From Amoebophrya sp. A120 (Eukaryota; Protista; Dinoflagellata): a stretch of 64,000 nt of DNA. Both the position numbers and the translations under genes were made by a program. Each line of letters opens with the position of its first letter. The first letter of the stretch is position 1. This document shows, one piece after another, positions 915-64,000 of this stretch. The stretch covers positions 1,112,004 to 1,176,003 of the forward strand of contig CAJINV010000012.1 of assembly GCA_905178155.1 (NCBI GenBank), in the 5' to 3' direction. The notes under the pieces were generated by a model, which worked only from the letters and a program-made list of their open reading frames with translations, was not told the origin of the DNA and searched no databases.

Positions 915-3900
915 TCACTCCGAGAGCGGTGAGAGCGAGCCCCGTATCAAATGCAAAAATGTCTGGGTCTGGAAACTTGTGATGTTGGGTGGCGTATCAT
1001 GAGGAGGCCACAAGTGCTGGCTCGGCATGAGAAGTTTCTAAGCCTCTAGGTGTAGGTGTTGCCTATTCTGTTTCTGCATGACAAACTGCGTCTCTGCATG
1101 ACAGAAAAAAGGCGCGCTTGGGTAACGCGCATGACAGATTTGAGAGTCATGCCAGACAAGCATGACAAACATGCATTCTTCCAGACCCCGACATTTTTAC
1201 ACTTGATACCCCGTCCGCTGGTACTATCAAAGTGGTTTTCGGCAACCGGAAAGTCGTCTTCTTCCAGAGAGATCGTTCCCTCATCCACGCTCTGCATGTT
1301 CTGCTTCAATTTCGACCACAAACTGTTAAAGGTGTCCAGCGTCTGTGCCGCAACCGCCTGACTTGCGGCGGAGGAGGTCGAAGGGGCGGTAGAAGCTGGC
1401 AGCTGCGCGACCACGTTGTCCTTGTTTGGGTCCTCCTGCTGTGGTCCAGCACGACTCCGGGTCGTCGTGTTCACCGCTGTGCATGATCCACCAAGACGAC
1501 CTCCACCGCCCGCTATACTACTTCTTTGATGCGGCTCCGTGAAGGGCTGCAGTACCTGCGTCTCGTTGACGAAAACGGGCAGCCTATCCTGATCAAAAAC
1601 ATCCCCACAGCACCAAAGTCAAGATGGGAAATCTGCTTGACAAATCACACAGCTTTGGTTGTTTGGCATGACAAGTTTGATGTCTCTTAGTGTGATCCTG
1701 TTTAGCTAGCTCAGAAGCATTACAGATCTACCACAGCATGCTGATCCTAGCATCACAAATCCCAAAACACGAATAGAAAATGCTTCATCCCATAGGACTC
1801 CGCATGAGAAACTTTTTTGGCATGCAGAATTGCATGACAACTCTGGGGTGGGTATGTTTTTACTCAGAATACAGCCACAGGTCCTCCGGCGTCCGAACCC
1901 AGCCGCGCCGGTACTCGCAGCAGGCAATCACTTCCTTGATATCAACTGTAAAAGTGTCTGGGTCTGGAAGAATCCAACTTGTCATGCTGATTTTGGATTA
2001 TAAAAAAATCTGTAATTGCATGAGCAGCAAAGAGAGCCCAAGTTTTGCTACACGCAAAGAGCATTTGTCATGCGGTATAGGCATCAGGAAGCCCTCACAA
2101 AATCTGTGATGCTAGGGCATGCATCACAGACATCAGGAGTCATGCAAAATGTGCATGACAAACCTGGCAATCTTCCAGACCCAGACATTTTTACATTTGA
2201 TAATTGAACCGCGGCCCCAATTTGGACAAAAGCTTCGCGTGCAGGTTGCCAAATTCCGTGCGGTACGCGACCCCCTTTTCGTGGATTACTTCGTAAAACT
2301 ATCCTGCGTAAAAACGTCCCCACCCCAGAGTTGTCATGCAAATCTTCACGCCCAAAATGCTTGCCATGCGCAGCCCCACGAGGAGCATTTTATTAAGGTC
2401 GCGCCCGGAGGGCGATATTGGTAACCAAATGCGTGCGCGAAAATCTAACCAGCGCGAAGGCCCACCAACCTTTTTCTAACATCGCCGCGGCCCGCGCCGC
2501 GAAAGCGCGGCCCTGCGGGCCGCGCTTTCGCCGCGCAGCCGCCGCCAGAAACGAGAAAAAGCACCATTTATTTTTAGTTCCTAGATTCCCACTTCTTCTT
2601 CTTGGGNATGCAAAATGTGCATGACAAACCTGGCAATCTTCCAGACCCAGACATTTTTACATTTGATAATTGAACCGCGGCCCCAATTTGGACAAAAGCT
2701 TCGCGTGCAGGTTGCCAAATTCCGTGCGGTACGCGACCCCCTTTTCGTGGATTACTTCGTAAAACTATCCTGCGTAAAAACGTCCCCACCCCAGAGTTGT
2801 CATGCAAATCTTCACGCCCAAAATGCTTGCCATGCGCAGCCCCACGAGGAGCATTTTATTAAGGTCGCGCCCGGAGGGCGATATTGGTAACCAAATGCGT
2901 GCGCGAAAATCTAACCAGCGCGAAGGCCCACCAACCTTTTTCTAACATCGCCGCGGCCCGCGCCGCGAAAGCGCGGCCCTGCGGGCCGCGCTTTCGCCGC
3001 GCAGCCGCCGCCAGAAACGAGAAAAAGCACCATTTATTTTTAGTTCCTAGATTCCCACTTCTTCTTCTTGGGTCGCGGGCCGCAGTTGTGCTCGCGGCCC
3101 TTGGGCCGCGGGGAAGTGGTGGAGCCCGCGGCGGCCCGCAGGCTCCTGCGATAAGCATTGAAGGCGAAATCCGGTCTGCTATTGCGCAGCGGGGCATCCT
3201 TTCTAGCCCCCTGCATGACAAACTGGCCACCTGGCCAGGAAGGTATGTGGGCCGCGCTCTCATCATCTAACCAGGAAGCAAGGGCGCGCAAAAGAATGCG
3301 TTTTTTGGCGAGCAGAACACCATCGCGAGTAACATTATGCACGAGGGCACGCTGGCCAGGAAAAAAGCGCAAATTTCAAAAAGTTAATCAATTCGCGCCA
3401 TTTCCGGCAGCCCTTTTGGGCCACCCAGATCGAGCATTTCCAAGCGGGAGGAGGCTCACAATTTTGGACCTCATACAGGTCGAAAACCGTGAGGGGTGGA
3501 CACACCTCCACAGGCTTGATAATTGTGTTCTTGTCGTCCAATCCCGGTGGTACGAGGCTGCGGAAAATTTCGCGAACCCCTTTTGACCGGCAATTTCCAA
3601 GCGGCTTTTACTTTTTCAGCAAAAATTGTCATTTTCAATTTCCAAGCGGTTTCCGGGGACTGGACAAAATCGGTAAATTTTGTCGGCCGCTTCTATGCTG
3701 CGAAAAACTGCATTTTTTCAACGCTTTTTTTCAATTTCCAAGCGGCTGGAGCTGCCCGGACGTGACGCATTTTTCGCTACAAAACCCATCACACCATCGG
3801 CCCTTTCCAAAAATGCCACTATCTTTTTTCAGCTTCAGACCGGGCGGAGCTGCAAAAATGATCTTTTTTACCCTTTTCGCACTTGATAACTGCTGTTTTG

Positions 3901-10072: not shown

Positions 10073-10144
10073 TATTTAGAATTTCAGAAATCACCTCTAT
10101 CGAAAAGGAAAATCAGACGTAGTCGACGGCCCCATCTCACCAGA

Positions 10145-22813: not shown

Positions 22814-22871
22814 CACCGTCATTTGGGGGTGGATGACGAGGGAGATTGGTTTTTCTTTTTACAGGCGGTGT

Positions 22872-40638: not shown

Positions 40639-42554
40639 CTACACGATCAGCTGATATGCGGTTTTTTTCTCCGCGAGCTCGTGCAAGGCGCCCGGGCCAC
40701 CGGTCAAGCGGTTAAATGCGTCCCGGTTCAACACCAGCAATTTGCAGTCCGTCACCGCTTTGATCGTGCACTGCCGCTTCTGGTCTTCCAGTAAAGCTAA
40801 TTCTCCAAAGAAATCACCCGGTTTCGTGTACTCCAACACCTGTTTTTCCTCCCCCTCTTCCCCTTCCTTTTTCAACGCCACGCAACTCCCCTTTTCCAGA
40901 ATGAAAAACTCCGAGCCGACCGCGTCTTGTTTGATGATAATTTGTATCAAATGCAAATAGGTCATCTGGGTCTGGAAAGATGCAGGAACTTGTGATGCTA
41001 CCTTTGGATTCTACATAAAATCTGTACTGCATGAACAGCAAAAGAGGTGCAATTTGTGCTACGTGGAAGGGCATTTCTCATGCGAAATGAGCATCAGAAA
41101 GCCCTCGCAGAATCTCTGATGCTAGGGCATGCATCACAGACCTCATGGGTGATGCAAAATCTGCATGACAAACTCCTGCATTCTTCCAGACCCAGACATT
41201 TTTGCAGTTGATAATCTGGTTTGCCTTCACCTCCCGTTCCACGATCCCGTCTACGATTTGCGACTTCTTCGTCTGCTCGATCCTCTGGAAGAGTGGGACT
41301 TTGTTCAGAAACTCCAAAATCATGTCGCGTTTGCTTTTATTCGTGGTTTGCAACACGGCGTTGTAATTTTTCCGGGTCAAGTTCCAAATAATCGTCGATT
41401 CTTTCGTGCAAACGACGGTGAAATCCCGGTTTTTCTGGTGCAAGACCGCCATCTCGTCGATGATGTTGTTGTCGTTTTTGTTCAAAGGTTTTGGCGTCAC
41501 AATTTTCACCAACTGCTCATTTGGATCCGCGAGATCATCGTCTCGTAAGTGAACTTCGCCGTGATCGAGAATGGAAAGGTAGTCTGCGTTGGCGGACTTT
41601 TTGTACAAGACATCCCCGGGTTCTAGTGGAACTTCCTCCATCGCGTCGATGAGTTTCTGCAAAGATTCCTCCGAAAGCTTCTCGAACAGGACGGACCTTA
41701 CCTGATAGAACAAGATGAAGATATTTATCCACGACCGGATCCCGAAGATGATCATCACAGGGAAAAAGCAAAAACTTCGATTCCTGTATATTAAGTTATT
41801 GCTAATCTAGCAGCTGTAAAGCGTGGTCGGATACTAGTACCATGTTGACTACATCAAGCTCAAAAAGAAACCAGAAATCAGCCTACAATCTATCAATTAT
41901 CCGTAGTAGTTCTAAGTATATTTGTACCAGCGTATTCCGCAACCTCTTCCTTTGGCTATCGCTTTTCGCGAATACGGGCACAACTTCCTCACCCTCCATG
42001 ACCGGCCCGGGCGACAGTCCCCTACTTCTGGGCGACGACGCCACCGCTCGTCGTTTTTCCGCATTTCTATTCGGTGCGACCAAATCCGCGTCGTCTAGAA
42101 GCAACTCGTCGTCCGTTTCCAGTCCCGTCATCTCGCCAGATTCGGGATTTATCCCATCTTGTCCCGCCGCTTCCCCCTCCCCCTCGACCGGCTTCGCCAA
42201 CGCCGCGGCTTCTTCCTGTTCCTGTTTCGCTAACGCTTCCTCCTCCATCTGAATCCTTTTCTCGACCGCGGCCTTTTCCAAAGACCCTAACGCCCGCCCG
42301 CATTGGTTGATCTTCTCGTTTAGCTGCTTGTTTTCATCCAGCAACAAGTCGTACTGTGTGGAGACCGTGTTCTTTCGCAAATTGCACCAGGCCAGGAGGT
42401 AATTTGTCGGATCTTGGTCGAGTTTGGCGCAGAACAAAGCGTCCATCACCATGTCTTCGAGAAGGGGGTTCAGCGTATCGCGGACGTATTTCTTCTTGGC
42501 GTCGCTGATGTTCAGCTTCTCCAAATCGTCGGAATTCACGTTGCCGGGCGGCAT
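40639..42554 (-). CDS. PKA regulatory-subunit-like protein with Dpy-30/RIIa-like N-terminal domain and two CNB domains
   Basis: YVRDTLNPLLEDMV...DPTNYLLAW; PVFAKSDSQRKRL; FFGELALLEDQKRQCT; GT-AG intron at ~41702-41925 plus one introner. Confidence 0.85.
40945..41213. mobile_element. Introner family A
   Basis: TIR; TSD ATTTG/ATCTG. Confidence 0.9.
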
Positions 42555-46200: not shown

Positions 46201-49200
46201 CTAAGATGGTGCAACGCGTGCGCCGCTCAATCCTATCGCGCGGCCTGCTCAGGTCTGCGTGGATCACTTGATTCTACATAAATTATACAACGCGCAACGT
46301 GTCGCGTTTTTTGGAAAAGTTTGTTACAAAACGCGATGGGAAAACAGGTGTCGTGCCAAGTTTAATTTTTACAAGATAAGAACTACTCCAGAAGTAAGTC
46401 GACCATGTTCTCCTCCATTTCTTTCGCAAAAGCTCGGATCTCACTCCAAATCTGCTCATCTGAAAACTGAAAATCTACATTGTAAGTCTTTTGTAAAAGC
46501 TCGAGCAGATCAGTGCGGGTCGTGGCGTCCGCAGGGTTGACAGTAGTGTTGATGTAGCAGTAGTGCCACAGAGTTTGCGGGTTCTTGTGGGCCCAGGCAC
46601 AAAGTGCACTAATTGCACTAGTGCTAACAGCGTTCTTCAATGACCCCGAGCAGATGCCAGCTACTGCGCCTGCATTATCGCAATGCAGCAGCGAGTTTTT
46701 GCCCTCGAGGTGTGTGGCAAAGAGCCGCTGCGCGATCGCAGCAGCCAGAATCTCGTACGTAAGTATGGACCCTCTGCGGAGGATCGGGGGCAGTTGTGAC
46801 TGCTTCGTGTGAAGCGAGAAGCCAACTGTCCGCTGCTTGTGCTGGAAGAGAGTGGCGCCAATGGCCACCTCGTCCCGCTTGAAGCTGGCGTCGCTCATAA
46901 CATGGGCACGCTCCCGGATCATTCCCAGCCTGACGATGTCTGTGGTGTCTCGTAGCTGGATGATTTTCTTGACCTTGTTCAGAATGATGCACAAGCTCTG
47001 CCGTGTGGTGGGCTGCGCTACTAGGCGGAAAAAATCTTTCTCCGAGGCGGTAAGCCGGTACAAGTGCTGCAGGATCGGGATGCCACGCCGGAACTTCCGG
47101 CTGTGCATCACATGGATCAAAAGCCCCTGCATGCGCTGGAGGTTTTTGAATGTGCAAAAATTCCGGCACTTGTCGGCGGCGAAGGTGGCCACTAGCTTGT
47201 CACACTCCTCCGAGATCCGCGCGACCTTCTTTTCCGGGACGTAAAGCGAGATCTTCGCGGCGGTTTTGTGGCAGGCGATGCCCAGCAGCTCGCAGGTCTC
47301 ACCCGTGCGGCAAGTTTCGTGCTTTTCCGGTGCTATGGCCACGCCGATGGTGGCGAGGAAGCGCCGGAATGCTGCCTCGTCCACTGGGATCAATTCGTCT
47401 GAACCGACGTACATGATATCATCCACATACACAAAGCAAGGAATCCGCAAAACTTTGTTGACGTAGTGGGACACCAATTCCGACACTGTTCCACAGAATC
47501 CGTAGATACTGTGAACATTGCCGAAGTTCAGGGCGAAAAGCTTGCCGAAGACCATCTTCTTCTTGAAGGGGTCGAATATCTGAAACTTGTTCAGCTCCGG
47601 ACGCTTCACGGCGCATTGGAAATACGCTTGAAACAAGTCGTCTTTTGCAATCGCGGGGAGAAAGCTGTGACCTTTAAAGTCCGGCTTCGGCTTTGGCAAC
47701 GCCTTCACATGCTTCCAGGTGTACTTCTCGTTGTACTTCCGCGCGATCTGCCTACCCTTCGCGATGGACTGGCTGACATCGGCGCGGTCCTGCCAGAAGG
47801 CGTCGGAGTACTCGGGGTTGGCGCAGTATGCGACTCCCTCGATAATTTCCGGCAACCCCGGCAAACTCATCTTCTCGCTTTGCGGTGACAGGTGGTCATT
47901 GACCGGGCCGTCGTTGGAGATCGGCCGGACCTTCGCGAACGCTCCGGTCTCGTCGTTGAGACGCTGGCCAAGGCCGAAGATACTGGAAAACCAGTCGCCT
48001 CGGCTCTTGGCTTCCGCCAACTCCTCCGGCGTTAGCTCGACGGCCAGACCGGCGTCAATGAGCTTTGAGTACGCTGTGAAGCTGCGCTGCTGCACATCTT
48101 CGGTCTCGAAGGACCTGGATGTGCAGTGGGCCAATATGACATGTAGTCGCGCTAGAAGAAAACCTCGCAAGAAGGCTAGAAAATGGAACTTGCTCAGGCG
48201 TAAAACAGAAAAGGAGAAAAGTATAAGAATACCACGGCCCCGACCGTATCTTGGCAAAAGACTGCAGACCTGCATGTCGCTCGGGGTCGTAGAAGTCGAA
48301 CTGGGTGAGGGTTTTCATGTACTCAGGCGAGAGGGGCTTGGCGTTTTCCCATGCTTTGAACACAGGGACGCGCCCCCGCGTCAGGAAGCCCGTGTTGATG
48401 AAACCCGAGGCCCCGAAGGCTCGCCTCCTCGACCACTTGTCCCCGAAATTGGCGTCGCGCGCGGCGAGTAGCATCGCCATCGCGTCGCACTCTCGAGTTG
48501 GAAACAGTGGGTCCTTCCCGATGTACATCGCGTTCACCCTGCGCACGTGGTCGGGCTTTGCCTTCGTGTACAAATCTCGCAGCTCTGTGCTCAGCTGCAC
48601 CCTGCGATCGAAATCGGACAGGACGCGATCTAGCCGCGCGGTTTCGTCGCTCACCGCCGTGCTGGCGGGCAAAGCGTCGACGCCCCGGAGGTGGTCGATC
48701 GCATCTTTTTTGAACTGGGGCAATTTTGGCATTTTCGAGGGGGGGGCGAAAGCAAAAAAGGAGAAGGGCTTGCTGCTACACTAACACTACTGTCGCTGCT
48801 ATGCCACGATGGAAATTCTCGAAAATACTAGTTCTTTACTGAGAGCGGAATGTCGAGTACAAAAGTCAAGCCGTGCTAGTTACGAAAACGAAGCGTGCTC
48901 CTTACGAGTAGAACTTCCCCATGTTCATGCACTGTGACTGCTGTGCGCGACTTAGCCAACCCCCACGACAGGCTACTCTGCTGTGCTCTGACCCGTCTAC
49001 TGACACAGAAAAATCTCCCGTATGTGTAAATAGTAGGACGAGAACTTCGTAGAGCGAGCCCCACCGAGAACGCTTGTAGCGCAGCGAGAGTCGAGAATGC
49101 GAGATGCTTCAAGGCGTTGCACCGCTATCACAATCAGAGAGGAGACTAGAGCAAGCCCGGGCATTTAGCTCGAGCCTGGGCACCTGAATCGCTTTCAATT

Positions 49201-52200
49201 CCCTGCGTTGCATCTTGCTTATCGCTACTGTGATCAGCACAAGGCGATCCGGTAGGGTCGTTGCCAATTCGCTTGCTCCGTCGAGGTCGTACAAACAAGC
49301 GCTCCGGTGCGTTCGCTAAAAACTGTCTTCCGATCGCGATCGGAAAAAATAGAGTCGGTGTGATTTCTGGTCCGAAAAATAATACAAATCGATAGCCATT
49401 CGGCAGCGTCTTAATGCAGAGAAAACTCGAAGAATCGTAGTCGAACGTGAGCGATTCATGCTGGCTGCTACAACATCGGTCTTTGCCGCAAAGGTAGTGT
49501 GGGTGGTAGTCAAATTTTAAAGATTAATTCTCATCGACAAGAGCGAATGCGTGTCACAAACTAGGGAGCGAAAGATCTATAAGCGAGCTACGGCGGGTGC
49601 TGTTCATGCTTTCCGCCTTTCTTCCCTTTCTCGCCCTTCGTCTTCCCGTCGCCCTTGCTGGCCTTTTTTCCCGCGCCTTTCTTCCCGGCGGGGGCGGGCG
49701 GGTTGGTCCACTGGGAGATGTCGACCGTGGCGTTGAAATTTTCCGTGTGGTACTTGGTGCTTGCGGGGTGGCCGCCATTATCACGCTCGCACTTGTCGCC
49801 CCATTTGCAGTACATCACGTCGTCGCTCCCGGGCAGGCGGAAGCCGCACAATCCGCCGCAGAACAGGGTGCAGATGGTGGCGTTCTTCCGGATCGTTTCC
49901 ACTTCCGTGCAGTACGCTGCCGCGAGGCCCGGCCGGGTGAAGGAGAGGGCGGCTGCGAAGCCGGTCTCCGTGCCCCTCCCCGCTCCCGGGGTATAACCTG
50001 TGGCTATTTTGTGAATACAGAAAGAGATGCGTGATTTTTAAGCGTAAACGGCCGTCAGTAGAAAATCTGCAAAAACATGTGCAAAAACTAGGAAAACGCC
50101 CCCGCGTATGTGATCGGGATCGATGGTTTCTAGGCGTAAACGGCTACCGAAATTGAACAGCAAACTACAAGGGAATAGCTAAAAAGCTGCACCAGTCGGC
50201 GCACCCGCCGCGGCGGCTGTGTGCGTGGCTGTCGGTGCTGCTGTGGCCGAAGCGCCACCAGTGGTAGCGGAGGTAGTGCTAGTGTTGGTCGATCCAGTCC
50301 AACCGCCACCACCCCCCGCACCTTTCGTCGTCGCCGCCTGCTTTGGGGCCGGTTTGCTGATCTGGTAACCAAAAGTCCCGTCCTTCTCCTGTACCTTGCG
50401 CAGCTCCGCATGTGCGGTTCTGTCGAACGGCCGGACATCATCAGCAAGGCCCGCAATGGCCTTGACAAACTCCTTGGTGGAAATTTGCGGACTATTCGCC
50501 TCCGTGGCTATGCAGAGTTCGGCGTAGAGCAGGATCAGGTGCGGGAGAGAGCAGTCGGATTTCTCCCCGGTGAACTTCTTCAGCGTCTTCTGGTCGCTGA
50601 GCCGCTGTCGCAGGCTCGTGTACTTGTCCAGTGCGCTGCTTTTCCAAAGAGACGTCCCGGCGAACGGGATAAGCAGGAACAGTTCCGGGAGGTTGTGCTT
50701 GCACAGGAGTTTGTTCACATTTGTCAAGTCGCCGTGCTGCACATCGGATCCATGCATGGTGCTGAAGGATCGGCATTCTTCGAAGATCTTCTTCACCAGC
50801 ACCTTGATCTCCAGAAATTTCACACCGGGGAAAAGTCGCTGCGTTTGCGCGTTCAGTGCGCCCCGGCCGATAAGGACCACCTGGTGGAATTCATCGATTG
50901 TTTTTGCGGTGCGCGGCCATCCGAAAGGAACGAGCAGGTCGGACTTGGAAACTTTCTTGCTGACGTTCGCGCAAAAGTCGTCGAAACTGGGCTCGTCGAA
51001 GAGGTTGCTCATCAGGCAGAGGACCATGTCCTGCACAAAGTTCGTCTTTTCCAGGGTGGAAACTTTGCTACTGTATCTGCCAAGCACACCCTGCGACAGG
51101 ATGGCGCCGCAGATTGGGTTCCCGAGGTCCTTGCCGACGTACGTAGTGCCCTTCCGGGCGCACTCCGCGGCTGCTTCGAACTCCGGCTGTACCTCTTCGC
51201 AGAGGAAGCAGAAAAACCTGCGTGCGTAAAACAAGAGATATTGTTGGGTGGAAGAACCGGAAATGCAAACGAGCTCATAAGTGGGTGGCCTGACAAATGT
51301 GTAGCATAGAGGAGACGGAGCAAAAGAAATATACGACGGGTTCGGGCGTCCCTTGTTGTTCACCAGCAGGCTGCCCCAATGCTTCAGCGGTGGGTTGTAT
51401 CCGGCTGGTGCCCTGGAGAAGTACTTGGTGAGGTAATCGTCGTCGTCTATCCACTGCTGTAGCCCTTCTTTCGAGCGCGGCTGGAAGTTCGAGCGCATGA
51501 CCTGGCCGGTACTCAGGTTGACCAGTGCGAAGGTCCCGGCGGATGCTGGTAGCTGCTGCTGCTGCTGCTGGGCCCCCGCCTGCTGCAGCATGCCGATGCC
51601 CTGGTATGACGCGTCCGCCAGGAGTCCCATGGGGTTTGCCTGGGCTGGCTCGGCGGCTGCTGTCACATCGGGTTTGACCGCGTTGGCTCGGCGGAGCTTC
51701 CGCAGCGCTAGACGGTCTGCTTGCGATTGGAGGCCACCTGGAGGACAAAAATTGCATCAATGAATTATATATCCAGGGAAGCTTACGCATACGCTGTGCT
51801 GTGAAATGCTAGCGCAGAAAAGACGAAATAGGAAGCACGTGTAACTGTGTACAGTTCTGCAACCCAAAGTGCTTCCCGCGCACCGCTCCTGAGGAGTCGG
51901 AAGATGCTCCGCCGCTGCTAGGCGGGGAGGCCACGCGCGCCCTTTTGTTTACGTTCTGCTGTGGTGAGGCGGGCATCGGTGGGTGTCCCATGATCGGCTG
52001 CGCGGCGCTGGTGTCCGTGTCGCCTCGCGCTTTCAAGTCTTCCTTCTTCTTCTTTACAAAGTCGTCCATGTGCTCGCGAGCTGCTTGCACTTCGTTCGCC
52101 GAACAGCTTTTGAACGGCCAGTCACGCGGAGCGGCGACTGGTTGCTGCTGCTGTGCTGCTTGCTGCAGGTTCTCGGGCTGCTGGGGCGGCGCCGAGGAGG

Positions 52201-55200
52201 AGGACGCGGCCGGAGCCGCTACTGTGGCATTAGCTTTCGCCTGTGCCACCTGGCGCTTCGCTTCCAGATCCGCGATGGGGTTGGAATCCAGTAACTGCTT
52301 GGCGAAGGCGGCGGTGAACGGGTGCAAATTTTCGAGGTTAAGCCTCCGGTCGTGGTGCAGCATCTTCAGCGCGATGTTGCAGCGCATGAACGTGAGCACG
52401 AGTCCGTAGGTTCCGACATCGGAGTAGTTGCCGCCGCAGAACTGGAAGGCCTGGCGGACCGGCGTTGGCCACTGTGCCAGGGCCCGCTCGAGTGGCGACC
52501 GGAACCACTTGTACATGATGATCACGGTGCGAACATGGTGGAAGATGTTCCCCAGCCCGCCTGGAAAGAGGGTGAGAAACTCGAAGACGTCGTCCTTGGT
52601 GTCGTTGGCAATCGAGCTGAGGCCGTCCGCGTGCGCCACAGTCGACAAAGCGAAAACGCCGTGCAGAATCTTGGCCAGGATGCTGCCAACTCCGTCCGGC
52701 TTCTTGGGGTCCATGCAGGACCGGTCGGCCCGCAGTTTCTGGGTGATTTCCGCGAAGATGGACTGTGGTCGTGTTTTCTAATCATCAATGCCAAATTAAT
52801 TCACGAGCACCCTGTTAGTGACCAAGTACTGCAGTTCTTCCGTTTACCATGCTGATCTTGCAGCAGCATCGTGCAAAGCTAATTTTCATGCATATCTTCC
52901 GCATGATCACACGGGTACAAAAATGTATAAGATGCGTAGGAATAAAACTGCAGTCGGGTAATCATCAAAGCCACGTACCTTGCTCTGCGCGCGCTTTGTC
53001 CACTTCGTGCTCGTGGGGTCCATCAGCTGCTGCTGCACTTCTTTGTACATTTCCTGCACCCGGGCCAGGTCGAAGGACTCGCCGGGCGGCACGATGTCAA
53101 AAGGGGCGAAGAGCTTGTTCTCCAGCACTGACTTAAGCGCGGCGAGTTGCTGCGCGTTTTCCTGTGCGGATTTTTGCAGCGCCAGCTGGCTCACGTCGCC
53201 GGGAAACAGTTTGCTGGGCGAGGGGTCGCCAATTCCGGGCAGGTTGGACCCGCCCCCGTGTGGGGAACCCGGCTGCGACGGCATCGTCTACGTAGTGCGT
53301 GTAAAACTGGTAGTACGCCTGGTGGAGGTCAGGCCGCGGAGCCAAAAACATTGGCGCGGCTGAGAACCATCGGTGATAAGATGGATCGAAATGGCTAGAA
53401 GTAGTAAAGGTAAGTATTCGAACTGCAACATGGGCACAGGTGTGCGCGGTATCTCTCGAGGCTGGGCGACGAGAGTACAACTACGCTCACGGGTGTCGCT
53501 CGCGGTGGACGAGAGTGAAGACGTGCGACCCGGTCGAAAAAACTCTCTCGATGACGGCAGAGGAACTGAAAAGTGATCTAACGACCCTGACCAAACCGAA
53601 GTAGAACAACAACTGGCGCAGTTCTAGCAGGTGCCAAAAGTGCTGCTGGTGCGGAGGGCGCGCGTCGTGAGCGCGCGGCGAGTACACGGAAAACCTACTG
53701 AGACAGTCTATGGAGTCGAACAACCGGACAAAACACAGTTCTAGCACGTGTAAAAAGTGCTGGAAAAGGGGAGGGAGGGGGGACAGGGTGCCAGGGGTGA
53801 ACACACGTGTGGCGGGAACACAAGGTAGGAGAACACACGGTGCTATGACTATGGGGGTGCGGAAGCACTGCCAAAGCCAGTAGCACTGGAGGGGAAAAAG
53901 AGATCATATGTCGCAAGGAATAAGGGAGAAAACCACGTGGCAAGAAGCTCAGCCTTCTGTGGGCTGGCTTAGTGGGTACAGCGCCCTAGCTGTCCCGAAT
54001 GAAACTTGCAGTGGGAGAATAGGTGCATGTGAGTAGTGCAGTGGAATAAAGTGCACGAGGTGTGTGGCACCAAGCGCAGACGGCCCCTGAGGTTTTTCAT
54101 CCATTAGACAGACAAGTGACAGCTACCACGAAGTGGTAACCCAACCGGTCAATGAGTCCTCGACTCTAAAGACACAGGCAGGTATCCATCGTCCCCTCCA
54201 GAACGAATGTCATAGCATGCACCAGATCACATCGGCAGTCCGCAGGGAGCGGACCGCAGAATCTAGACCCGGTGCGTGCTAAAGGATGCGACAAAATACA
54301 AAGTCACAAGAGTCTAAAGCCGGTGGTAGAAACAAAGAGAACAGGTAGAGACGAAATGAACGACGTTGGAGCAGTTTCCGCATGTGTATATTTATCTTAG
54401 CACTTTTGCATTGCATATCCGTATTTTTCCAACAACTTTTTCCGTTCCTGCTCCAACACGTACTGGCAGTTCGCCTCCACGATGTTCTGCGTATCAAATG
54501 CAAATATGTCTGGGTCCTCCAGAAGATTGCGAGATTTGTGATGCAGTTTTTCCAAGCTCCACCAAGTCTGGAATGCAGGGTCTAGCATCACAGGTACTGC
54601 AGCCCCTTGCCCTTGGCCGTGAACGTGATTCCTCCGTTGCATGAGAAATAACACCCTCCGAGCAGGCCCAGGAGACGTGGGCATCTCTTGTTCTTGCGAG
54701 TTATGAAATACAAGATTTTTGTATGCTCCGCAACACGCATCACAAGTTCGTATCCTTCCAGACCCAGACATAGTTGCAGTTGATACTGCACCTTCTTCCG
54801 CAATTTCACGGATCTGAAGTCCTTCAACGCAAACAGCCTTTTGTTCTCGTCCTTCACTCTTCTCAGCCTTTCCGCTATTCTCTTCTGCTTTTGCTTCTCC
54901 TCTAGAAGCTTCTCGTCCATGGTCAGCATCGATTGCCGGTTCTGCTCTTCGATGCGCAGCTTCAGTTGCGAAATTACTGCTTCCAAGTCCTTGTTCAGCT
55001 GCACGATTTTGTCGTGCTCTTCCAGCAGAACCGCGGTCTTCCGCGCGTCCGCCTTGTAGGAGTCTAGAACCACTACAACGTTGTCCATTTCTTCCTGCCA
55101 GGCGGTTCGCTGTTCGGTGTGCTTCACCCGCAACTTCCCCATCTGGGTCTCAATTTTTAGTTTCTCTTCGTTCAAAAATTCCATTTGCCGCCCCTTGTTC

Positions 55201-58200
55201 TGGATCTTTATCGTGAAGTCTTTCTCAATCTGGACGATCTTCTGCTTCTCTAGATCCACTTCAGATTATCAATTGCAAAAATGTCTGGGTCTGGAAGGAT
55301 GCAAGGTCTGTCATGCTTGTCTGACATGACTGAAGAGTTTGCGATGCGTGTCCAAGAAGAGACCCTCTTGCTTGTCATGCAAAACGCAGCTTGTCATGCG
55401 GAAAGCGCAACACGAAGCCGCGCAAAAATCTCTCATGTTGGCTGCGCATTACAGAAAATTCACCATTCAAAAATCAGCATTACAAGTTTCCAGACCCAGA
55501 CATATTTGCATTTCATACAGTTTCCTTCTGCTTCAAATCCGCGCTCCACTTCATGTGCTCCTTTTTGTATGACAGTGCACCGCTCCTCCTCCCCCTCATT
55601 TGTATAGCATGAACGGCAATACAAGCATCAGCAAGAATGCCGGTTTTGCATGACAAGTTTGCACTGGATTGTAGTTCTATTTGGACTACCAGAACTTGTC
55701 ATGCAAACAGTGCCAAGAAGCAAAGGGTGGATTCTGTATTTTGCATGACAAATGAGGGGGACACGGGGAGTTGTGCGCTGTCATATCTTGTACTCAAGCT
55801 TGAAAAACTCGTACTCGCTTTCGATTTGCTCCTTCTGTTCCTGCATGACTTGCTCGTTGTTTAGCGCTTTCCGGACTTTTAAGTTCAAACCGGTGACCAA
55901 ATCCTCGTGCTTTTGTCGGATTTCGTTCAAGATTAATTGGTGTTTGTTCTTCTCCTCCACCATGTCATGTTCGTATTTCTCATCTTTCTCCTTCACAACC
56001 TGCTGCAAATCTTCCACCTTTTCGTCCCGTTTTTCGGCCAGGTAGTCCTGCGACTCGATAAACTCTTGCAGCTCCTTCTTCAGGTCGTCCCTCTCGGTTG
56101 TCAAAGTTTTGATGATGCGGTCCAGCTCTTCCTTGTGCAGGTAGAGTTTCACGTAGTTCGCGTCTAAATCCTCGTACAAGAGATGTTCCCTCTCCCGGGT
56201 GAGAATCTTCTCGTTCGTCATCGTATCCACAGTATCCACATGATTTCTGTAGTCCTCCCAGATTTGCGAGTACAAGTCCTCCTTCCAGTGCGAGTCCCTC
56301 TCAAACTGCAACAGCTTCGCATCTTCGTAATTCTCTACTAACCTACGCCGCTGCGAGAGGATGTCCTCGATCTGGTAATTTTTCCTTTCCAGTTCGAGGA
56401 GCTTCTCCTCCTCGTTCGTTTGGATTAACCGATGTCGATGCGACAAGTAATCCTCGTAGCCCATGTTGAAGTTTTCGCGCGCGAGAACCAGTATTACAAT
56501 GAAAAATGCCCGCAGCACCCCCGAACTTGGCAGCGTTAGAACATGCAAACCTTTCCAATAGAAACACTCCCGTCTTGCATATATCAGCATCACAAATTTT
56601 CCATGCTGAATATCTCAAATCTGTGTTGCAAAGGAGCCCAGCAGTAGCCGGATCTGTCATGCAAAAGATACGTTCCGCAGCCAGATTCTGCATCAGCAAG
56701 GCTCGTAGTCCTTTCATGCATAGATAAAAAGTTCTTCGTTTGAAAACCTTATGCATGAGAAACTTTTGCAAAATCCGGGTTGAGGGCATTTTTCATTTTA
56801 ATAACCCGTCTTTCTTCTTTATCCATTTCAAAATTCTCCACCATCCGCACCTCCTATCCAACGGAAAAATCCCCCCTCCCCATATCGAAGTGGAAATCTG
56901 TGATGCAGGATTTGAGGTACCAAATCGAGTTGTCATGCTAGAAGGCCAAGAGCCGCAGTCGTGGTCTCGTTTGCAGGCAATTTGTCATGCTGTTTCCCAC
57001 TCTCAGCTGCCTCCTATCATGCTGAAGATGCAAGGCTCCCCCACGCCACCCAGCACTACAGTCCGCATCTTTTCCCGTGTAGCATGACAAAGCTGATTTG
57101 TGACAACAAATCTGCATCACAGATTTCCGTTTTGATATGGAGGGGGGGATTTTTCCTCTCAATACCTCCTGCGCGATCCCCTCTTCGATCAGCATGTTTT
57201 GTCGTTCGCGGTTCCATATCCAGTGCAAAAGCGTCCTGTCGTACTAGTATGAATTGCATCACAAATCTCCTCAGCATGAGTAATGCTGATTGTGATTTGC
57301 CATTAGATCGAGAATTGTAAAAATGCTTGACTGCGATTAGTACGAGTACGCTGCTTTTGCAGTGCATATTCCAGGCGACCTCCGTTGTCCAGCGGAGCTC
57401 CCATTTGACTTGCTGGTTTCGCTATTGAACAAAAAAGTTCATTTGGTAGCGGTAGCGATCTTACTACTCGCACTCGCGTTCTTGCAAGACAAACAGTCGC
57501 CGACATGCACGGTATGCAATACAAATTCCGGTCGTAGTTTTTGCCTTGCCGGACAGCAAGAGAAATTTCGCTAAAGCTAGAAAAACTTTATGTTGGTGTG
57601 ATATTCGCCAATCTTCCTTCATCATCTCTTGCTGTTCCCGGTTTCTTTCCAATTCCAGCATCGCTTTCTGCAACTCCTGGTCCAGAAACTCCGCTTCTTT
57701 CGTTTTCTGCTCGATCATCAACTGCAAATCTTGCTCCAAATCCACCGTTATCCAATGCAAAAGTATCGTACTCGTAGTTAGTAATTGCAAGCATGCAATA
57801 CAAATTAATATATTTATATAAGGCAAACTTTGGGGCCGGAGAGGGTCCGATAGAGGTTGGGGAGAGGTTTCGTAGAGGTTAGACAGAGGGTCGGAGAGGT
57901 AAAGTAGAGGGTCGACCAAAACAAGAGGGTCGGGGAGAGGTAAAGTGAGAGGGTACGGAGAGGGTCGGGAGAGGGTGCGCAGTATAGGGGACCGTATAGC
58001 GGCGCTATACGCCCGAAGAGGGTGCGTAGAGGTTGAGTAGAGGTCAAGTAGAGGGTAGGGGGAGAGGGTCGAGAGGGTCAGAGAGGTTCCACAGTATAGG
58101 GCGACCCTCTAAGCGACCCTCTATGTCGACCCTCTCCGGGAACCTCTTTTTTACCTCTCGGCGGACCCTCTCGGGACCTCTTGGACCCTCTCCCGGACCC

Positions 58201-61200
58201 TCTTCGCGACCCTCTCCGAACCTTTCCCGGACCCTCTCCGAACCTCTCCCGGACCCTCTCCGGGACCCTCTCCCGGACCCTCTACCAGAACCGCCCGCAC
58301 AGTGAAGCTCGCCCGTCTGCGCGCAGTGCCTGTGTCCTAGAGTAAGAATAAACAAAGCTAGGGCCTAAAAGTTCAGGCCTCCCCTGCAAGTTTTTCTTTT
58401 TTGACTCCAGGGCAGACCAGGGCGGCTGTTCAAAGTGCATGCGCCGCTCTGCGTCCCCCGGGGGGGGCGCGGCGCCACGCCTTAACGTAGGCGGCCACCT
58501 AGGGTGGCCGCAACTTCACACAGTGCCCGCGCGCGGGCAGCAGGTGTTGCGTCTTTGTAGCGGCGCGAAAGTGGTTGCGACTAAAGTAGCGACAGCTTTT
58601 CTCTGCCCGTTGTCTCTCGGCGCAAGCATAGCGCATTAGCCTTCGCAAGCACATGCAGGCCCCGCCGCGTGCTCGCTGCCTAACAGGATTCCAGCTCGCC
58701 ACCTTGTAGAAGCGGCACTCCCCCTGTTCAGGGTGCACCCCTGCAACCAACTCCCCTTCCAAGAAAGGCCAACAACCCCCGGCCCCGGGCGCTGCTTTTT
58801 TCGCCAACAAAGAACGCAGGCCGCGGAGGTATCGCTGCCTGCGTGTGTGCGCTGCGCTTTCTGGGCCAACCCCGTCAGACCGGCGCGGCCCCGCCTGCTT
58901 TTTTGGCTGTGCAGCGGCGCGCCACCCTTGGCATCGCCTTCCCCGTTGGAACACCTCCTCCGAACAGCCTCCCTCCCCGGCGGCCTCCGCCGGGGGGTGG
59001 CTGGTCTCTCTCTTAAGGCAAATCAGCATTACAAATTTCATTTCTCATGCTGAGCAAATTTGTAATGCATTTATACGAGTACGATACTTTTGCAATGCAT
59101 AACCGTGTTCGCCCGAAAACTCGTCATGGTGGCGTCCAAGGTTGTGTGCTGGTCGGTTAGCGTGGACAGTTGCTGATTCAACTCTTCGATCTCCTTCTGC
59201 TTCGCCTCTCGCAGATCCACCAGCTCCTGCTGCAGTTTTCCCTGTTCGTCTATTAATTGATTTTTCTCCGCTACAAGCGATTCCACTTCCGAGGTAAGCT
59301 TCTCCACCTGAAGAACCCCCTCGTCGTGCCGGGTCTGCATATGAACTGCAAAAGTATCGCACTCGTAGTAATTGCGGTCATGCATTACAAATTTTCTTTT
59401 TAAGGTAAATCCGCATCACAAATTCCATTTCGCATGCTGAGGAAATTCAAATAATTTGTAATGCATTTATACGAGTACGATGCTTTTGCATTTCATACTG
59501 CAGATCGGCGTGCAATTGCTGGAGATTTTCCAATTCCGCTTTGACGTTCTTGTTTTCGTTCTGAACGACGAGGGTGGTCGCGGACAAGAGTTCTTTTTCT
59601 TGGTTTAAATTTTCGATTTTTTCCTCCAAGTCGTTTTTTGTCTTCTCCAACTCCTCTTCAACTTTCTTTTTCTCTTCGATTAAGTTGTCCCTTTCCTTGG
59701 TGTATGAACTGCAAAAGCATCGCACTCGTATAAAAAATGCATTACCAATTTCCTCAGCATGAGAAATGCAATTTGTAATGCGGATTTACCTTAGCAAAAG
59801 GATTTGTAATGCATGATTGCAATACGAGTACGATACTTTTGCACAGGATATGGTGACGGCCTGTTCGCGCTTTTCCGCCTCTTCCTTCTCGCTTTTCGCC
59901 CTCTTCATTTCTGGCTCGAACTCCTCCCATTTTTTCTGCAGTTCCTCGTTCTTCTCCTTCAATTTCTCCACTTCCCCCTGCAGTTTTTCCGTCTGCTTCT
60001 CCGCCGCTTCCTTTTCCCGTATAAAAACCCGCTCAGGTGTCACTAATATCTCAAGCGTTACAATAGAATCTGGAAATCTGTGATACAAGAAGTGCATGAG
60101 CTAACCCGCTCACGCAGGATTGCGCATGACAAGTTTCGGAGCCCCAAACCGCACTGGAATCATCTGCCGGAATTTGTGTTGCAGAAAGTGGAACGCGCTG
60201 CCGCGATTCTGTCATGTACAGCATGCAAGACAAACTCCAGATTCTATTGTAACGTTTGAAAAAATTGTAACATCGGAGCAAGCCATATCCCGGACGGCGG
60301 TCTTTTTCTCGTCCTCGAGGGTTTTCAGTTCTTTATCCTTCTCTTTTATTTTCTCCTCCAGTTCGTCATTGGTTTTTTCCAACTTTTCTCGTTTCTCCAC
60401 GTGCTTTTGCACGTCTTCCTCCAATATCAAGTGCCAATATGTCTGGGTCTGGAAGAGTCATGCTGCTTTTGCATGACAGCGAAGGTCTGGCATGGAAGCT
60501 CTAGCATCACAGATTTCGAGAAGCTTCCGCAATGCCGACTCCGCATGACAAATGCCCCATTTTGGTGACAAGAAGCGGGCAGCTTTTGCTGCCTATGCAT
60601 GAGAGATTTTTTTATGTGTTGTGAAATGCGCATCACAAGTTTGCATTTTTCCAGACCCAGACATATTTGCGATGCATATCCAAATCCGTGATTTTTCGCT
60701 CTAAATCCTTTTGCACCTTCTCCGCCTCCTTTGCAACTTTCTCTGCAGCGTCTTTTTCCTTTTTCATTTCGGCCATTTCTTCCTTGTTTTTCTTCTTCTC
60801 CTCCTTCATCTCCTCGACCTCCTTTTCTTGCTTTATGCAGAGCAAAAGAGTGCTGTGCTGTGTAAGCGTACTTAACATGCAGAAGCAGATGGTGCAGGTG
60901 CACATCAACAGCGCAGTAAATAATTTTGTCTGAATGTTGAAAGGTGCTATGCTCAGCGACAGAGAGATGTCTGTTCAGACTGACACGCAGTATTCGGCAC
61001 AAGAACATCATTCAATACGCGATTATTTTTAAGCACTTCTCTTTCACTCTGGATACTTTTTTCCATTTTGTCATTTGCCTTTTTCAAATCGTCCTCCGCA
61101 TTTTCCTTTTCCGTCTGCAGATTGTCCTTGTCTTTCTTGAGCTGCTTTATCAAATGCAAATATGTCTGGGTCTGGAAACTTGTGATGCTAAAATGTGGAT

Positions 61201-64000
61201 GATGGAAACAGTTGCGAATGCAACCCACCATGACAATTTTCCAGAACGCTTGTTTCTCATAGGCAATCCGCATGAGAAACTGCGTTTCTGCATGTACAAA
61301 AGAGGTTACGCAATACAGATTTTCTAGGTATGGAAAGCTAGCATTACAAGTTCCAACCTTCCAGACCCAGACATATTTGCAATCCATATGCTTGATCTCT
61401 TTTTCATTTTCCTCGTTCTCCTCTTTCAGCTCGTCTTTTTTCTTCGTCACCTCCTCCAGCTGCCCGCTCAGCTTCTCCGCCCGGGCCGCCTCGCGCTCCT
61501 TGTCGTCTTTGTTGTTGTCGTTTTCCTCGGTGAGCTTGTCGTGGTCTTTTTTCAAAGCGTTCAAATCTTTCTCTAATTGGTCGCGCTCGTCGTCCAACTT
61601 GTCGCTTTTCTCGCTCAGCTCCTTCACCTCGTTTTCCAATTTCTCGACCTTCTTATCCCCGTCTTCCTTCGCGTCCTTCAATTTGTCCCTTTCCTCCGAC
61701 AAATCCGAAACTTGCTTCTTCAAACTCTCTGCCTCCTTTTCAAACCCATCCTTTTCGTCATCGAGCTTGTCCGCTTTTTGCGTCAGTTCGGTGACTTCCT
61801 TGGTCAGCTTTTCCACCTGTTTGTCCGCATCTTCTTTCTCGTCCGTGAGTTTTTCCTTGTCGGTTTTCAGCGTATCAACCTCCTTCTCCAGCTGCTCGGT
61901 TTTCTTTTCAAATTCTTCCTTTGCGTTGTCCAATTTGTCGGATTTTTCCGTCAACTCAGCGACCTCCTTCTCCAATTTTTCTGCTTTCTTTTCCGCGTCT
62001 TCCTTTTCATCTGTGAGCTTTTCCTTATCGGTCTGCAGCGAATCTTTGTCCTTTTCCAGGGTTTCGACCTGCTTCTCGAACTGCTCCTTTTCGTTTTGGA
62101 GTTGATCCTTCGTCTTTGTTAGCTCTTCGATCTCCTTTTCCTGCTTTTCTCCCTTCTCGACCGCGTCCTTCTTTTCATCGGTGAGTTTTTCCTTCTCCGT
62201 GTTGGCGGTATCCAGGGTTTTCTCCAGTTCCTCTATTCTCTTCTCGCCCTGTTCTATCCCACAAAAAAAGTGTTACAGTTACACATTTGATGTAACTTCA
62301 GCATCACAAGTTTTCTCCGCATGACAGAGAAAACTTGCAATGCAAAGATCATAAGGGAAAACAGGAACGAAACGAGGCTCCAAAGCGTTTCCTGCTCTCG
62401 CATGAGAAAGGTTGTCTGTGTTGCCAGTTTTGCAACACAATGTGTAACTGTAACACTTTCTTCCTCCCATATGTTCCTTCTCCGCCTTTAGCCCGTCTTT
62501 CTCGGAGTTGGCTTCCTCGAGCTCCTTCTCCAATTTACTGACTTTCTCCTCCCCGTCTTGCTGCAGGGCGGAAAGCTTTTCTTTTTCGTTCTCCAGCTCC
62601 TCCTTCGCTTTCCCCAGCTCTTCCACCTTTCCCTCGGCGGCCTGCTTCTCCCCTTGCAGCCCATCCCGCTCGGACTCCAGCTCTTCTTTCGACTTTTCTA
62701 ATTCCGTATCAAATGCAAATATGTCTGGGTCTTGAAGAGTCGGAGTTTGTCATGCACATGTTGCATGACGCGTGAGGTCTGTGATGCAGGTCCTAGCATC
62801 ACAGATTCTTTGACGGCTTCTTGATGCTTATCACGCATGAGAAATGGCTTCTCCGCGTGCCAAGAACTGGACCCCTCTTGCTGCTCATGTTGCAACACAG
62901 ATACTTTTAGAATCCGTAGACAGCATTACAAGTTCCACCCTTCCAGACCCAGACATATTTGCATTTCATATTCCGCCAGTTTTTCCTCCGCGGTGGTCTT
63001 CTCAGCGAGCAAGGCTTCTTTCTCTGCTTCCAATGCCTGCTTCGCAGTTTCGGTTATAACCCGCTCAGGTGTTACAATCTCAAACGTTACAAGCAAGTCC
63101 GGAATTTGTGTTGCAAAATGCGCAACATCTGGCCTACTCCCACAGGAGCGCGCATGACAAGTTTCGGAGAGCCAACCCCGATGAGAATCTGGCGAAATTT
63201 GTATTGCGAAAAGCCCAAGTCTCTGTATGGCACTCATGCTGTTTATGCAAGACAAATTGCAGACTCTATTGTAACGTTTGAGATTGTAACATCTGAGACA
63301 GACATATCGGTTTCCTCCGCTTTCTGGTCCGCGGCGGTTTTTTATGAGACTGCCCAACTCCTCCTCCCCCTCATTTGTATGGGATGAACGGCAATGCAAG
63401 CGTCAGCAAGAATGGCGGTTTTGCATCACAAATCTGCACAGCCACAGGAAACTTGTCCTATTTGGACTGCGAGATGAACTTGTCATGCAAACATTGCCAA
63501 GAGGCACAGTGTGGATATGGGATTTTGCACGACAAATGAGGGGGAGAACGAGGGGGGTTGTGCTCTCTCATACTTTTTCCCCCTGCAACCCATCCCTTTC
63601 CGATTCGAGTTCTTCCTTATCAAATGCAAAAATGTCTGGGTCTGCAAACTTGTCATGCTAAAGCTGCATGATAGACGCACTGCAGTACACAGCTATGCAT
63701 GACAAATATTTTGGCTGTCATGTCTTACGTATTCCGCATGGCAAACTGCGTTTTTGCATGACAGGTAAAAGGGCTTTCTCGTGCCTATGCAACACACAGA
63801 TTCTCGAATCATGCCAGACAAGCATGACAAACTTGCATTCTTCCAGACCCAGACACTTTTACAGTTGATATTCCTTCTGCTTCTCCAATTCCGCGACCTT
63901 CTCTTCCGCGGCCGTTTTCTCTGCGGTCAGACCCTCTTTCTCGGATTCCACCGCTTCCAATTTCTTCTCCGCCGCTTCCTTTTCGCCCTTCAGACTATGT
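43252..64000 (-). CDS. Long E/K-rich coiled-coil protein (5' end outside window); 19 introners; last intron ~11 kb
   Basis: Heptad-rich exons; the junctions I translated join in frame by the 5-bp rule; terminal join LLEKYG|ITDAETAGGDAY* (stop at 43252). Confidence 0.85.
44493..46182 (-). CDS. Tyrosine recombinase of the retroelement (2 introns)
   Basis: TSGLR (Arg), DVK (Lys), YGIRRG (HxxR position), FLW, ERDY (Tyr); intron 44988-45105 joins ELNM|VHLP in frame. Confidence 0.8.
46383..48732 (-). CDS. Reverse transcriptase plus RNase H (DIRS-type; 1 intron)
   Basis: RT motifs DDLFQAYFQ, LNFG, YVDD; RNase H motifs SDAS, YEILA, CDN, NPADATTR; intron 48115-48232. Confidence 0.9.
49588..53284 (-). 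CDS. Gag-like ORF1 with C-terminal Cys/His cluster and basic tail (4 introns)
   Basis: Four ORF pieces joined by GT-AG introns; CTLFCGGLC...CKWGDKCERDNGGH; lies upstream of RT. Confidence 0.65.
54492..54785. mobile_element. Introner family A
   Basis: TIR; TSD CTGCG/CTGCA. Confidence 0.9.
55267..55517. mobile_element. Introner family A
   Basis: TIR; TSD CAGAT/CAGTT. Confidence 0.9.
55568..55785. mobile_element. Introner family F
   Basis: TIR; TSD TTTTG/TCTTG. Confidence 0.9.
56492..56803. mobile_element. Introner family H
   Basis: TIR TATTACAATGAAAAATGCCC; TSD ACCAG/ACCCG. Confidence 0.9.
56855..57164. mobile_element. Introner family C
   Basis: TIR; TSD CCTCC/CCTCC. Confidence 0.9.
57217..57368. 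mobile_element. Introner family D
   Basis: TIR; TSD TTCCA/TTCCA. Confidence 0.9.
57749..59101. mobile_element. Introner family D with a nested ~1.2-kb insertion
   Basis: TSD ACCGT/ACCGT; insert flanked by TAAGGCAAA direct repeats. Confidence 0.85.
59340..59497. mobile_element. Introner family D
   Basis: TIR; TSD CTGCA/CTGCA. Confidence 0.9.
59703..59850. mobile_element. Introner family D (opposite orientation to 59340)
   Basis: TIR; TSD TGGTG/TGGTG. Confidence 0.9.
60020..60287. mobile_element. Introner family G
   Basis: Imperfect TIR; TSD TCCCG/TCCCG. Confidence 0.9.
60425..60678. mobile_element. Introner family A
   Basis: TIR; TSD TCCAA/TCCAA. Confidence 0.9.
60834..61055. mobile_element. 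Old introner with eroded TSD
   Basis: Imperfect TIR; removing element plus 5 nt restores ME-K-QEKE. Confidence 0.7.
61148..61388. mobile_element. Introner family A
   Basis: TIR; TSD TGCTT/TGCTT. Confidence 0.9.
62255..62471. mobile_element. Introner (AAAGTGTTACAGTTACACATT TIR)
   Basis: TIR; TSD TGTTC/TGTTC. Confidence 0.9.
62707..62970. mobile_element. Introner family A
   Basis: TIR; TSD TTCCG/TTCCG. Confidence 0.9.
63055..63306. mobile_element. Introner family G
   Basis: TSD TCGGT/TCGGT. Confidence 0.9.
63343..63572. mobile_element. Introner family F
   Basis: TIR; TSD TTTTT/CTTTT. Confidence 0.9.
63618..63870. mobile_element. Introner family A
   Basis: TIR; TSD TTCCT/TTCCT. Confidence 0.9.

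Follow-up and report, generated by a model that had tools for sequence, protein, structure and literature searches.

An internal motif arranged in helical phase across introner families of Amoebophrya sp. A120, a candidate DNA-stage mobility signal

The window analysed here, a 64,000-nucleotide stretch of contig CAJINV010000012.1 from Amoebophrya sp. A120, carries genes interrupted by numerous introners (Table 1). Forty-nine TAT...ATA elements were curated by hand and make up 15,659 bp. Eight canonical GT-AG introns, seven of them RNA-supported and one inferred, account for 1,242 bp, RNA-supported exon for 7,969 bp, and a 10,956-bp insertion at 43445-54400, whose open reading frames (ORFs) gave no Pfam match, separates the two halves of one introner; the rest of the window amounts to 28,174 bp.

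Table 1 Features of the window, with positions counted from its first letter
Feature	Positions	Strand	Details
Family A introner (TIR TATCAAATGCAAAAATGTCTGGGTCTGG)	945..1208		264 bp, TSD CCCCG, five broad motifs all +; sites 1096/1129/1160 at intervals of 33 and 31 bp
Family B introner (TIR TATCCTG..AAAAAC)	1585..1871		287 bp, TSD CAGCC, motifs on +; 1717/1750 33 bp apart
Family A introner	1940..2202		263 bp, both orientations; 2103-/2121+ back-to-back, 2121/2153 32 bp
Family B introner with >1-kb internal insertion	2300..4295		466-bp exact duplication around N at 2588, probably an assembly artefact
Eight introners of five TIR families, all with motif	4348-4655, 4909-5079, 5127-5434, 5800-6111, 6179-6490, 6551-6828, 6900-7168, 7250-7558
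Six family A copies, mostly aged	10147-10410, 14924-15290, 15739-16001, 16069-16337, 16494-16877, 17316-17659		Several lengthened, 2-3 broad motifs each; bounds of the first two placed by eye
Family B introner	20259..20538		Spliced out with one 5-nt TSD copy; four broad motifs, all antisense in RNA; has a TIR stem
Three introners gone from the transcript that also lacks 20259..20538	20791-21001, 22123-22367, 22414-22724
Four canonical GT-AG introns, gene of 20259..20538	20578-20711, 21148-21280, 21408-21619, 21819-22012	-	Three without motif, one with a single copy
Canonical GT-AG intron without recognisable TIR	32504..32619	-	Two broad motifs, 47 bp apart
Introners, cNMP-binding-domain gene	32740-33006, 33082-33315, 33679-34160, 34200-34345, 34941-35235, 35307-35530		First four junctions seen in RNA contigs; 33679-34160 is an old element with 33836-34142 nested within
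Canonical GT-AG intron without good TIR	34395..34563	-	Four broad motifs
Family A introner, second cNMP-binding-domain gene	40945..41213		Sites 41131/41163 separated by 32 bp
Family E introner split by 11-kb motif-free insertion (43445-54400)	43296..54417		Motifs at 43344-43417
Ten introners, one minus-strand gene	54492-54785, 55267-55517, 55568-55785, 56492-56803, 56855-57164, 57217-57368, 57423-57603, 57749-59101, 59340-59497, 59703-59850		Lengths of run X1 contig record 1 match loss of seven of the ten, with one TSD each
Family E introner, lattice broken by 1.2-kb insertion	57749..59101		Absent from RNA contig (inferred by length arithmetic)
Old TAT...ATA element without motif, terminal stem kept	60834..61055		Absent from RNA contig (86 nt = 96 - 2x5)
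Other introners of 60020..63870, all with broad motifs	60020-60287, 60425-60678, 61148-61388, 62255-62471, 62707-62970, 63055-63306, 63343-63572, 63618-63870

The introners are 110-330 bp long, start with TAT and end with ATA, carry terminal inverted repeats (TIRs) of ~25 bp and are flanked by a 5-bp target site duplication (TSD). A TIR pattern scan returned 134 stretches, which yielded 130 related loci (748,556 bp) that overlap the window in repeats only; as these loci were picked by the TIR of one family, that family is over-represented in the sample. A strict detector found 548 unique elements, 35 of them contributed by the window, which fell into 31 broad clusters, with 22 subfamilies of at least four copies. 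All 44 consensus ends start with TAT, a figure partly built into the detector, and A occupies positions 11, 12 and 13 in 36, 38 and 42 of them, respectively; a perfect 5-bp TSD flanks 418 of 612 TAT-intact copies. The 548 copies are short, non-coding and TIR-bearing, with a TSD and multicopy families, like miniature inverted-repeat transposable elements (MITEs) and other non-autonomous TIR DNA transposons. Their ends also follow the A120-type inverted-repeat pattern of TAT, seven variable bases and at least three A, and the direct repeats of such introners are represented by the 5-bp TSD; where elements are intact, the joint in the RNA has an ambiguity of 4-6 nt. In anatomy and family lengths they fit the published A120 introners, for which the available text of PMC12130899 lists lengths of 149, 208-227, 250-271 and 305-322 bp.

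A preliminary description of this DNA had claimed that an internal motif, GCAT[CGT]ACA[AG]A, is shared in both orientations across the introner families and is rare in exons, intergenic DNA and the large insertion, there called a YR element, and both claims are borne out by the counts. The window contains 100 matches (53 on the plus and 47 on the minus strand) between 1076 and 63831, whereas 100 dinucleotide shuffles gave a mean of 0.97 +/- 1.02 and a maximum of 4; the enrichment over background on which the motif had been staked beforehand is therefore present. The curated elements hold 94 of the matches, the eight canonical introns four and the rest of the window two, with none in the RNA-supported exon and none in the 43445-54400 insertion. 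A broader form, W-GCA(T/A)(G/C/T)A(C/G)A(A/G)(A/G)T, derived from 2,284 sites, has at least one match in 48 of the 49 elements. This broad motif occurs at 16.5/kb in elements, at 15.4/kb in element-like DNA (a class that takes in intact copies missed by the detector), at 0.54/kb elsewhere and at 0.175/kb in coding-like DNA. Two further statements have to be withdrawn. The motifs were said to lie often in facing pairs, but facing is the rarest arrangement among 147 adjacent pairs in window elements (22, against 89 same-orientation and 36 back-to-back), and 12 of the 49 elements have a single orientation only. The families were also said to share little else, but TAT/AAA ends are common to them and, with motifs and TIRs masked, spacers are similar in 23 of 231 subfamily pairs (judged with only 12 shuffles per pair). 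Because of this shared spacer sequence the families are not fully independent, and part of the phase pattern described below may be inherited through partly homologous spacers.

The sites form a lattice. In the family consensus maps, same-orientation sites lie 31-33 bp apart and opposite-orientation sites ~16 or ~48 bp apart, so that a module reads -,+,-,+ over ~60 bp with two-fold symmetry. This four-site module often recurs at 80-85 bp; module-centre distances read from the maps are ~31, 52, 74, 80-87, 93-96 or 126 bp depending on the family, and across 15 families with different TIRs the modules mostly recur at whole helical turns. Single sites flip orientation yet hold their position. The first outward site is mostly 35-36 or 43-47 bp from the element end (55-56 bp in one family), so that motif copies lie near the ends, as in subterminal arrays, and the arrays occupy the interior too.

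When periods of 7-15 bp were scanned, phase peaked at 10.4 bp, the helical repeat of B-DNA, with a 6-bp offset between orientations. At this period, 176 pairs from the consensuses of 15 families gave a mean cosine of 0.49, compared with 0.35 for the best of 300 random placements, a null computed on a coarser grid than the scan. It was 0.46 for the 86 same-orientation pairs alone, for which no offset is fitted, and 0.34 for the 63 pairs at least 90 bp apart. Inter-module phase, assessed with modules intact and spacers randomised, gave p=0.001 for the 15 families and p=0.0105 for a stricter nine. In the window alone, with period and offset fixed beforehand from the family-consensus scan, the mean cosine was 0.36 over 308 pairs from 39 elements without large insertions (null maximum 0.13), and 40 of 126 same-orientation pairs within 100 bp fell at 30-34 bp. 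Site positions keep phase with the ends of the element as well (R=0.37, n=77, Rayleigh p 2e-5). Phasing was weak, with mean cosines from -0.10 to 0.18, in 6 of the 21 scored subfamilies. Total element lengths displayed no helical periodicity, and a proposal that they are multiples of ~52 bp or helically periodic did not hold. Since a 10.4-bp phase and an orientation-dependent half-turn offset are properties of double-stranded DNA, all sites would lie on one face of the helix.

Removal of the elements from transcripts was followed in contigs from runs X1-X4, which are one sample, taken as RNA by guess. These contigs skip eight elements, each with one TSD copy, and seven GT-AG introns in the same transcripts; because they also skip the GT-AG introns, they behave as spliced RNA. 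The lengths of contig records in which junctions are unlisted match removal exactly (283 nt = 308 - 5x5 for five elements, and 45 = 55 - 2x5). Run X5 contigs cross exon-element borders unspliced, raw reads of run X7 barely map (20 reads), and the stretch 15560-18894 is without RNA contigs, which carries no message on expression. The element flanks have no GT/AG preference, and removal from mRNA does not depend on GT-AG, as in A120-type introners.

The preliminary description had offered, as one half of its interpretation, an intron-definition or branch signal for this splicing, and that half is not supported. The host strand could be predicted for 310 of the 548 elements, in which 583 sense sites stand against 659 antisense sites; 45 of these elements are antisense-only, 29 sense-only and 2 without sites. 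Elements lie either way round relative to the host gene, with no overall bias; one of 22 subfamilies is skewed (0:7, p=0.016 uncorrected). The core UNAC resembles the branch consensus yUnAy, and mirror sites were therefore compared in 387 host-oriented copies. In 236 of these, a sense site lies no more than 60 nt from the 3' end; 38 lack sense sites altogether, and in 35 none comes closer than 100 nt to the 3' end. Divergence was 0.054 at the 3' sense site and 0.037 at its 5' antisense mirror (p=0.02, the opposite of what a branch role would give), and it was equal at the candidate branch A (0.056 versus 0.055). The motif thus lacks the profile of a branch point, which would be on the sense strand, near the 3' end and kept in immobile copies; moreover, a motif-free element (60834-61055) and an antisense-only one (20259-20538) are removed all the same. 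We set aside pairing between motifs in the RNA as a general requirement, since some families have sites in a single orientation. Splicing is likely to rely on the ends, that is, on TAT and the TIR stem (z = -9.6 in one element), and not on the motif.

Within subfamilies, identity to the consensus is 96% in motif core columns, 93% in the inner TIR and 82% in spacers, which makes the core the best-conserved interior class of the elements. Its decay was analysed in 693 aligned copies out of 773 long matches. Binning by spacer divergence, which hinted at strong motif retention, was discarded: it mixes lineage differences with age and carries an HMM-detection bias, and we therefore relied on TSD mismatches and length as clocks. 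In copies with two TSD mismatches, core divergence rose by 0.062 (0.038-0.087) and that of conserved spacer columns by 0.085 (0.050-0.122). In copies lengthened by at least 20 nt the increases were 0.057 for the core, 0.078 for the inner TIR, 0.105 for conserved spacer and 0.028 for the terminal TAT, and copies with mutated TAT ends had little core loss (0.013-0.016). Between modules, copy-private indels of at least 2 nt occur at 7.7/kb, compared with 6.5/kb inside the 32-bp pairs (p=0.07) and 5.4/kb within motifs; all indels pooled are depleted in pairs (p=2.5e-5). These observations fit selection on still-moving lineages followed by near-neutral loss, and decay of the core may be slower than neutral, for a sample of ~700 copies out of tens of thousands in which private changes are not purely post-insertion. 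Decay in old copies had been named as evidence against a splicing role; sites and spacing do decay, which largely settles that point, and some residual constraint may persist.

Canonical introns were predicted and filtered on flank score, with 53 of 159 kept for the motif count and 102 of 159 for phase; a first predictor had been too strict (27 introns). In a window check under the stricter filter, five of six predicted introns matched RNA-supported ones, one with a wrong acceptor. Of the predicted canonical introns, 43 have no element homology; together they contain 20 motifs, where 2.7 would be expected, and the motif is absent from 31 of them. In TIR-less canonical introns the mean cosine is 0.38 +/- 0.15 over 22 site pairs, and one intron (L055:5111) retains all four sites at family spacing with both TIRs decayed. 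Because some canonical introns keep phased motifs, the motif may have a weak host role.

A search for the protein partner covered ~0.73 Mb. None of 11 long candidates was a long TIR element with a transposase ORF, and none of 178 ORFs belonged to a transposase family. In one locus (L034), what looked like a 6.2-kb autonomous element whose TIR carries the motif turned out to be two distinct family E copies paired by chance, and a scan of viral contigs gave nothing. Section 16 of Farhat et al. (PMC7789003) reports no transposase in A120, U1 snRNA is given as not detected in A25 or A120, and movement without an identified transposase and splicing without canonical sites or detectable U1 are stated as open questions in the available text of that paper. 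In the article text and supplements that were searched, we found no report of the internal motif or its phasing. The motif strings do not occur in those supplements of PMC7789003 and PMC12130899 that were covered, their sole match in the Amoebophrya literature is a primer, and the available text of PMC9860276, PMC12005148 and 10.1101/2020.10.14.339549 does not describe an internal motif. The phased motif lattice is thus apparently an undescribed feature of a known element class.

We propose, with moderate confidence, that the motif is a helically phased site in non-autonomous TAT...ATA transposons, bound by a putative double-stranded-DNA protein that bends the element for end pairing. A sequence-specific protein would bind the lattice sites cooperatively on double-stranded DNA and bend or wrap the short element, bringing its two ends, only 110-320 bp apart, into synapsis; the common TAT/AAA tip would serve as the cleavage end. 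After insertion the lattice would be dispensable, with the TIR stem and TAT tip guiding splicing. We envisage a single protein that would bind all families and act when the ends synapse, either the DNA-binding domain of the transposase or an accessory factor for bending. Of the transposase-binding array envisaged in the preliminary description, a protein-binding array on DNA accords with the 10.4-bp phase, the cross-family conservation and the decay, while the transposase as binder is our inference, the search having returned none.

The alternatives differ in what would read the lattice and when. A host DNA-binding protein could read it after insertion, marking introns in chromatin and helping their co-transcriptional removal. 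The motif excess and phased site pairs of TIR-less canonical introns, the spacing retained in L055:5111, core decay at 55-75% of that of conserved spacer columns on two clocks, its low level where TAT is mutated and the reported non-detection of U1 in the available text of PMC7789003 would all suit such a protein. We nevertheless regard it as unlikely, given that most of the canonical introns examined lack the motif, that the motif-free element and the element with a 1.2-kb insertion are still missing from RNA contigs, that phase-breaking private indels are barely depleted inside pairs and that motif-bearing canonical introns can be former introners with remodelled ends. An RNA-level branch-point or intron-definition signal is highly improbable on the evidence above, and a 10.4-bp phase would be meaningless on single-stranded RNA.

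Less likely still than a host intron-marking protein is that the lattice positions a general chromatin protein (a histone tetramer, nucleosome or DVNP) and so aids excision or insertion. The distance of 80-85 bp at which the ~60-bp module often recurs is close to one superhelical turn, DVNP is among the genes listed as detected in the two strains, and other introners are tied to nucleosome linkers in the available text of PMC9860276. The signal, however, is a specific word of 10-12 bp and not a dinucleotide pattern, no clear WW/SS periodicity was seen outside the motifs, and the motif is nearly absent from exons and non-intron DNA. Spacer similarity and the common TAT/AAA ends might instead mark the motif as a functionless relic of families built by duplicating or shuffling one ancestral block. 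This is improbable and already disfavoured, as the motif columns are far better conserved than the spacers between them, module spacings vary by family yet mostly stay near whole helical turns, and individual sites change orientation in place. A more far-reaching idea, which we consider doubtful, combines mobility with marking: a host or domesticated DNA-wrapping protein would pack every introner into a particle of 60-bp modules, licensing both the movement of the TIR families and the marking of introns. If that were true, the identity of an intron would lie in a helical code of the DNA and not in the sequence of its splice sites.

Under the preferred reading of a bending protein bound to DNA, two signals are separated: the lattice inside the element acts like a signal for mobility at the DNA stage, and the likely splicing signal lies in the ends. 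The lattice may explain how many TIR families share one machinery. In addition, the motif and its spacing rule provide a bait with built-in controls, scrambled or shifted by half a turn, for catching the mobilising protein.

By analogy, the lattice would work like the subterminal binding arrays of other transposons, while belonging to none of the Emigrant/Lemi1, IS1535 and Hermes families. The TSD of hAT elements is 8 bp long, unlike the 5 bp of the introners. As in Hermes, a hAT element whose multimeric transposase uses a separate domain to bind many subterminal sites in both orientations (PMC6188088), introner sites are numerous and of both orientations, but hAT spacing is described in the available text as variable, whereas introner spacing is phased. 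The left end of IS1535, of the IS607 family, offers helically phased 9-bp motifs that nucleate a protein filament for end pairing, according to the available text of PMC6188088. However, IS1535 has a bacterial serine transposase, no TIRs or TSDs, and direct repeats 10-11 bp apart, whereas introners are TIR elements with 5-bp TSDs whose sites alternate in orientation at spacings of 31-33 bp. As described in the available text of PMC10045372 and PMC2836005, IS3EU/GingerRoot share TA..TA termini with the introners but usually have a 6-bp TSD, and TDD-4/5 share the 5-bp TSD but Ginger2/Tdd elements end in TGT instead of TAT, so that neither group matches on both termini and TSD. The closest likeness in anatomy is to the A120 introners themselves (Farhat et al. 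2021, PMC7789003; Gozashti et al. 2025, PMC12130899), with inverted repeats of TAT + 7 nt + AAA, direct repeats at the junctions and non-canonical splice ends; in the available text their families are defined by inverted repeat and overall similarity, with a shared internal motif or helical phasing unmentioned. Emigrant, the MITE partnered by Lemi1, is likewise a non-autonomous TIR element with subterminal motifs that are bound cooperatively besides the TIRs (PMC1636448, available text). In contrast to Emigrant, which is one family with a known partner, the introners comprise at least 15 families with different inner TIRs, all of which carry one motif along the whole element.

When insertion sizes were counted in 693 element copies from the window and the related loci (for example, window:43296-43345), insertions of 3 nt (n=641) stood out against those of 2 nt (n=252) and 4 nt (n=163), with extra peaks at 6, 9 and 12 nt. 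Only 11% of the insertions are tandem duplications, and their number rises with TSD mismatch, from 0.9 to 2.65 per copy.

Introners also receive larger sequences (see table). The ORFs of the 11-kb insertion had no Pfam match, and the 1.2-kb insertion is 88% like L033:11267-12068, in a related locus outside the window. Both of these large insertions have family E introners as hosts. On either side of the A-tailed insertion stands a duplicated stretch of ~16 bp, and the motif is part of that duplication. At window:33679-34160, where an intact introner lies within an older one, RNA contigs skip the two together as a single 487-nt block.

The predicted intron in L055, another outside locus, keeps four of four motif sites at family E spacing despite the decay of its TIRs, and is a candidate for an introner in the course of conversion to a canonical intron.

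Features in and around introners and repeats
Position	Feature	Details
window:2142-3073	exact 466-bp duplication	surrounds single N at 2588
window:23563-31515	second large repeat region	duplication with 3,148-bp spacing
window:33679-34160	older degenerate introner	intact introner 33836-34142 nested inside
window:43445-54400	11-kb insertion	within family E introner; RT-like ORFs judged by eye
window:57804-59010	1.2-kb insertion	within family E introner; GAGAGGGTC repeats
L035:4631-5602	~700-bp A-tailed insertion	within family A introner
L055:5111-5250	predicted GT-AG intron	family E interior, decayed TIRs

Exons separating adjacent introners are often 35-90 nt long (window:56804-57422 and loci). 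Shorter gaps are rare (10 of 430 in the window and loci), and this size pattern suggests that insertion or splicing requires a minimum spacing.

In the second large repeat region, which RNA-like contigs cover in part, the unit CCTTCGATCAACATGAAA(A/C)CGACGACATGCGAGGAAA recurs. The 466-bp duplication, which contributed one duplicate motif match (2619), is probably a scaffolding artefact.

The triplet-insertion signature of introner copies is unusual for non-coding DNA. Fast protein evolution has been reported for the genus Amoebophrya, and the signature might have a bearing on it.
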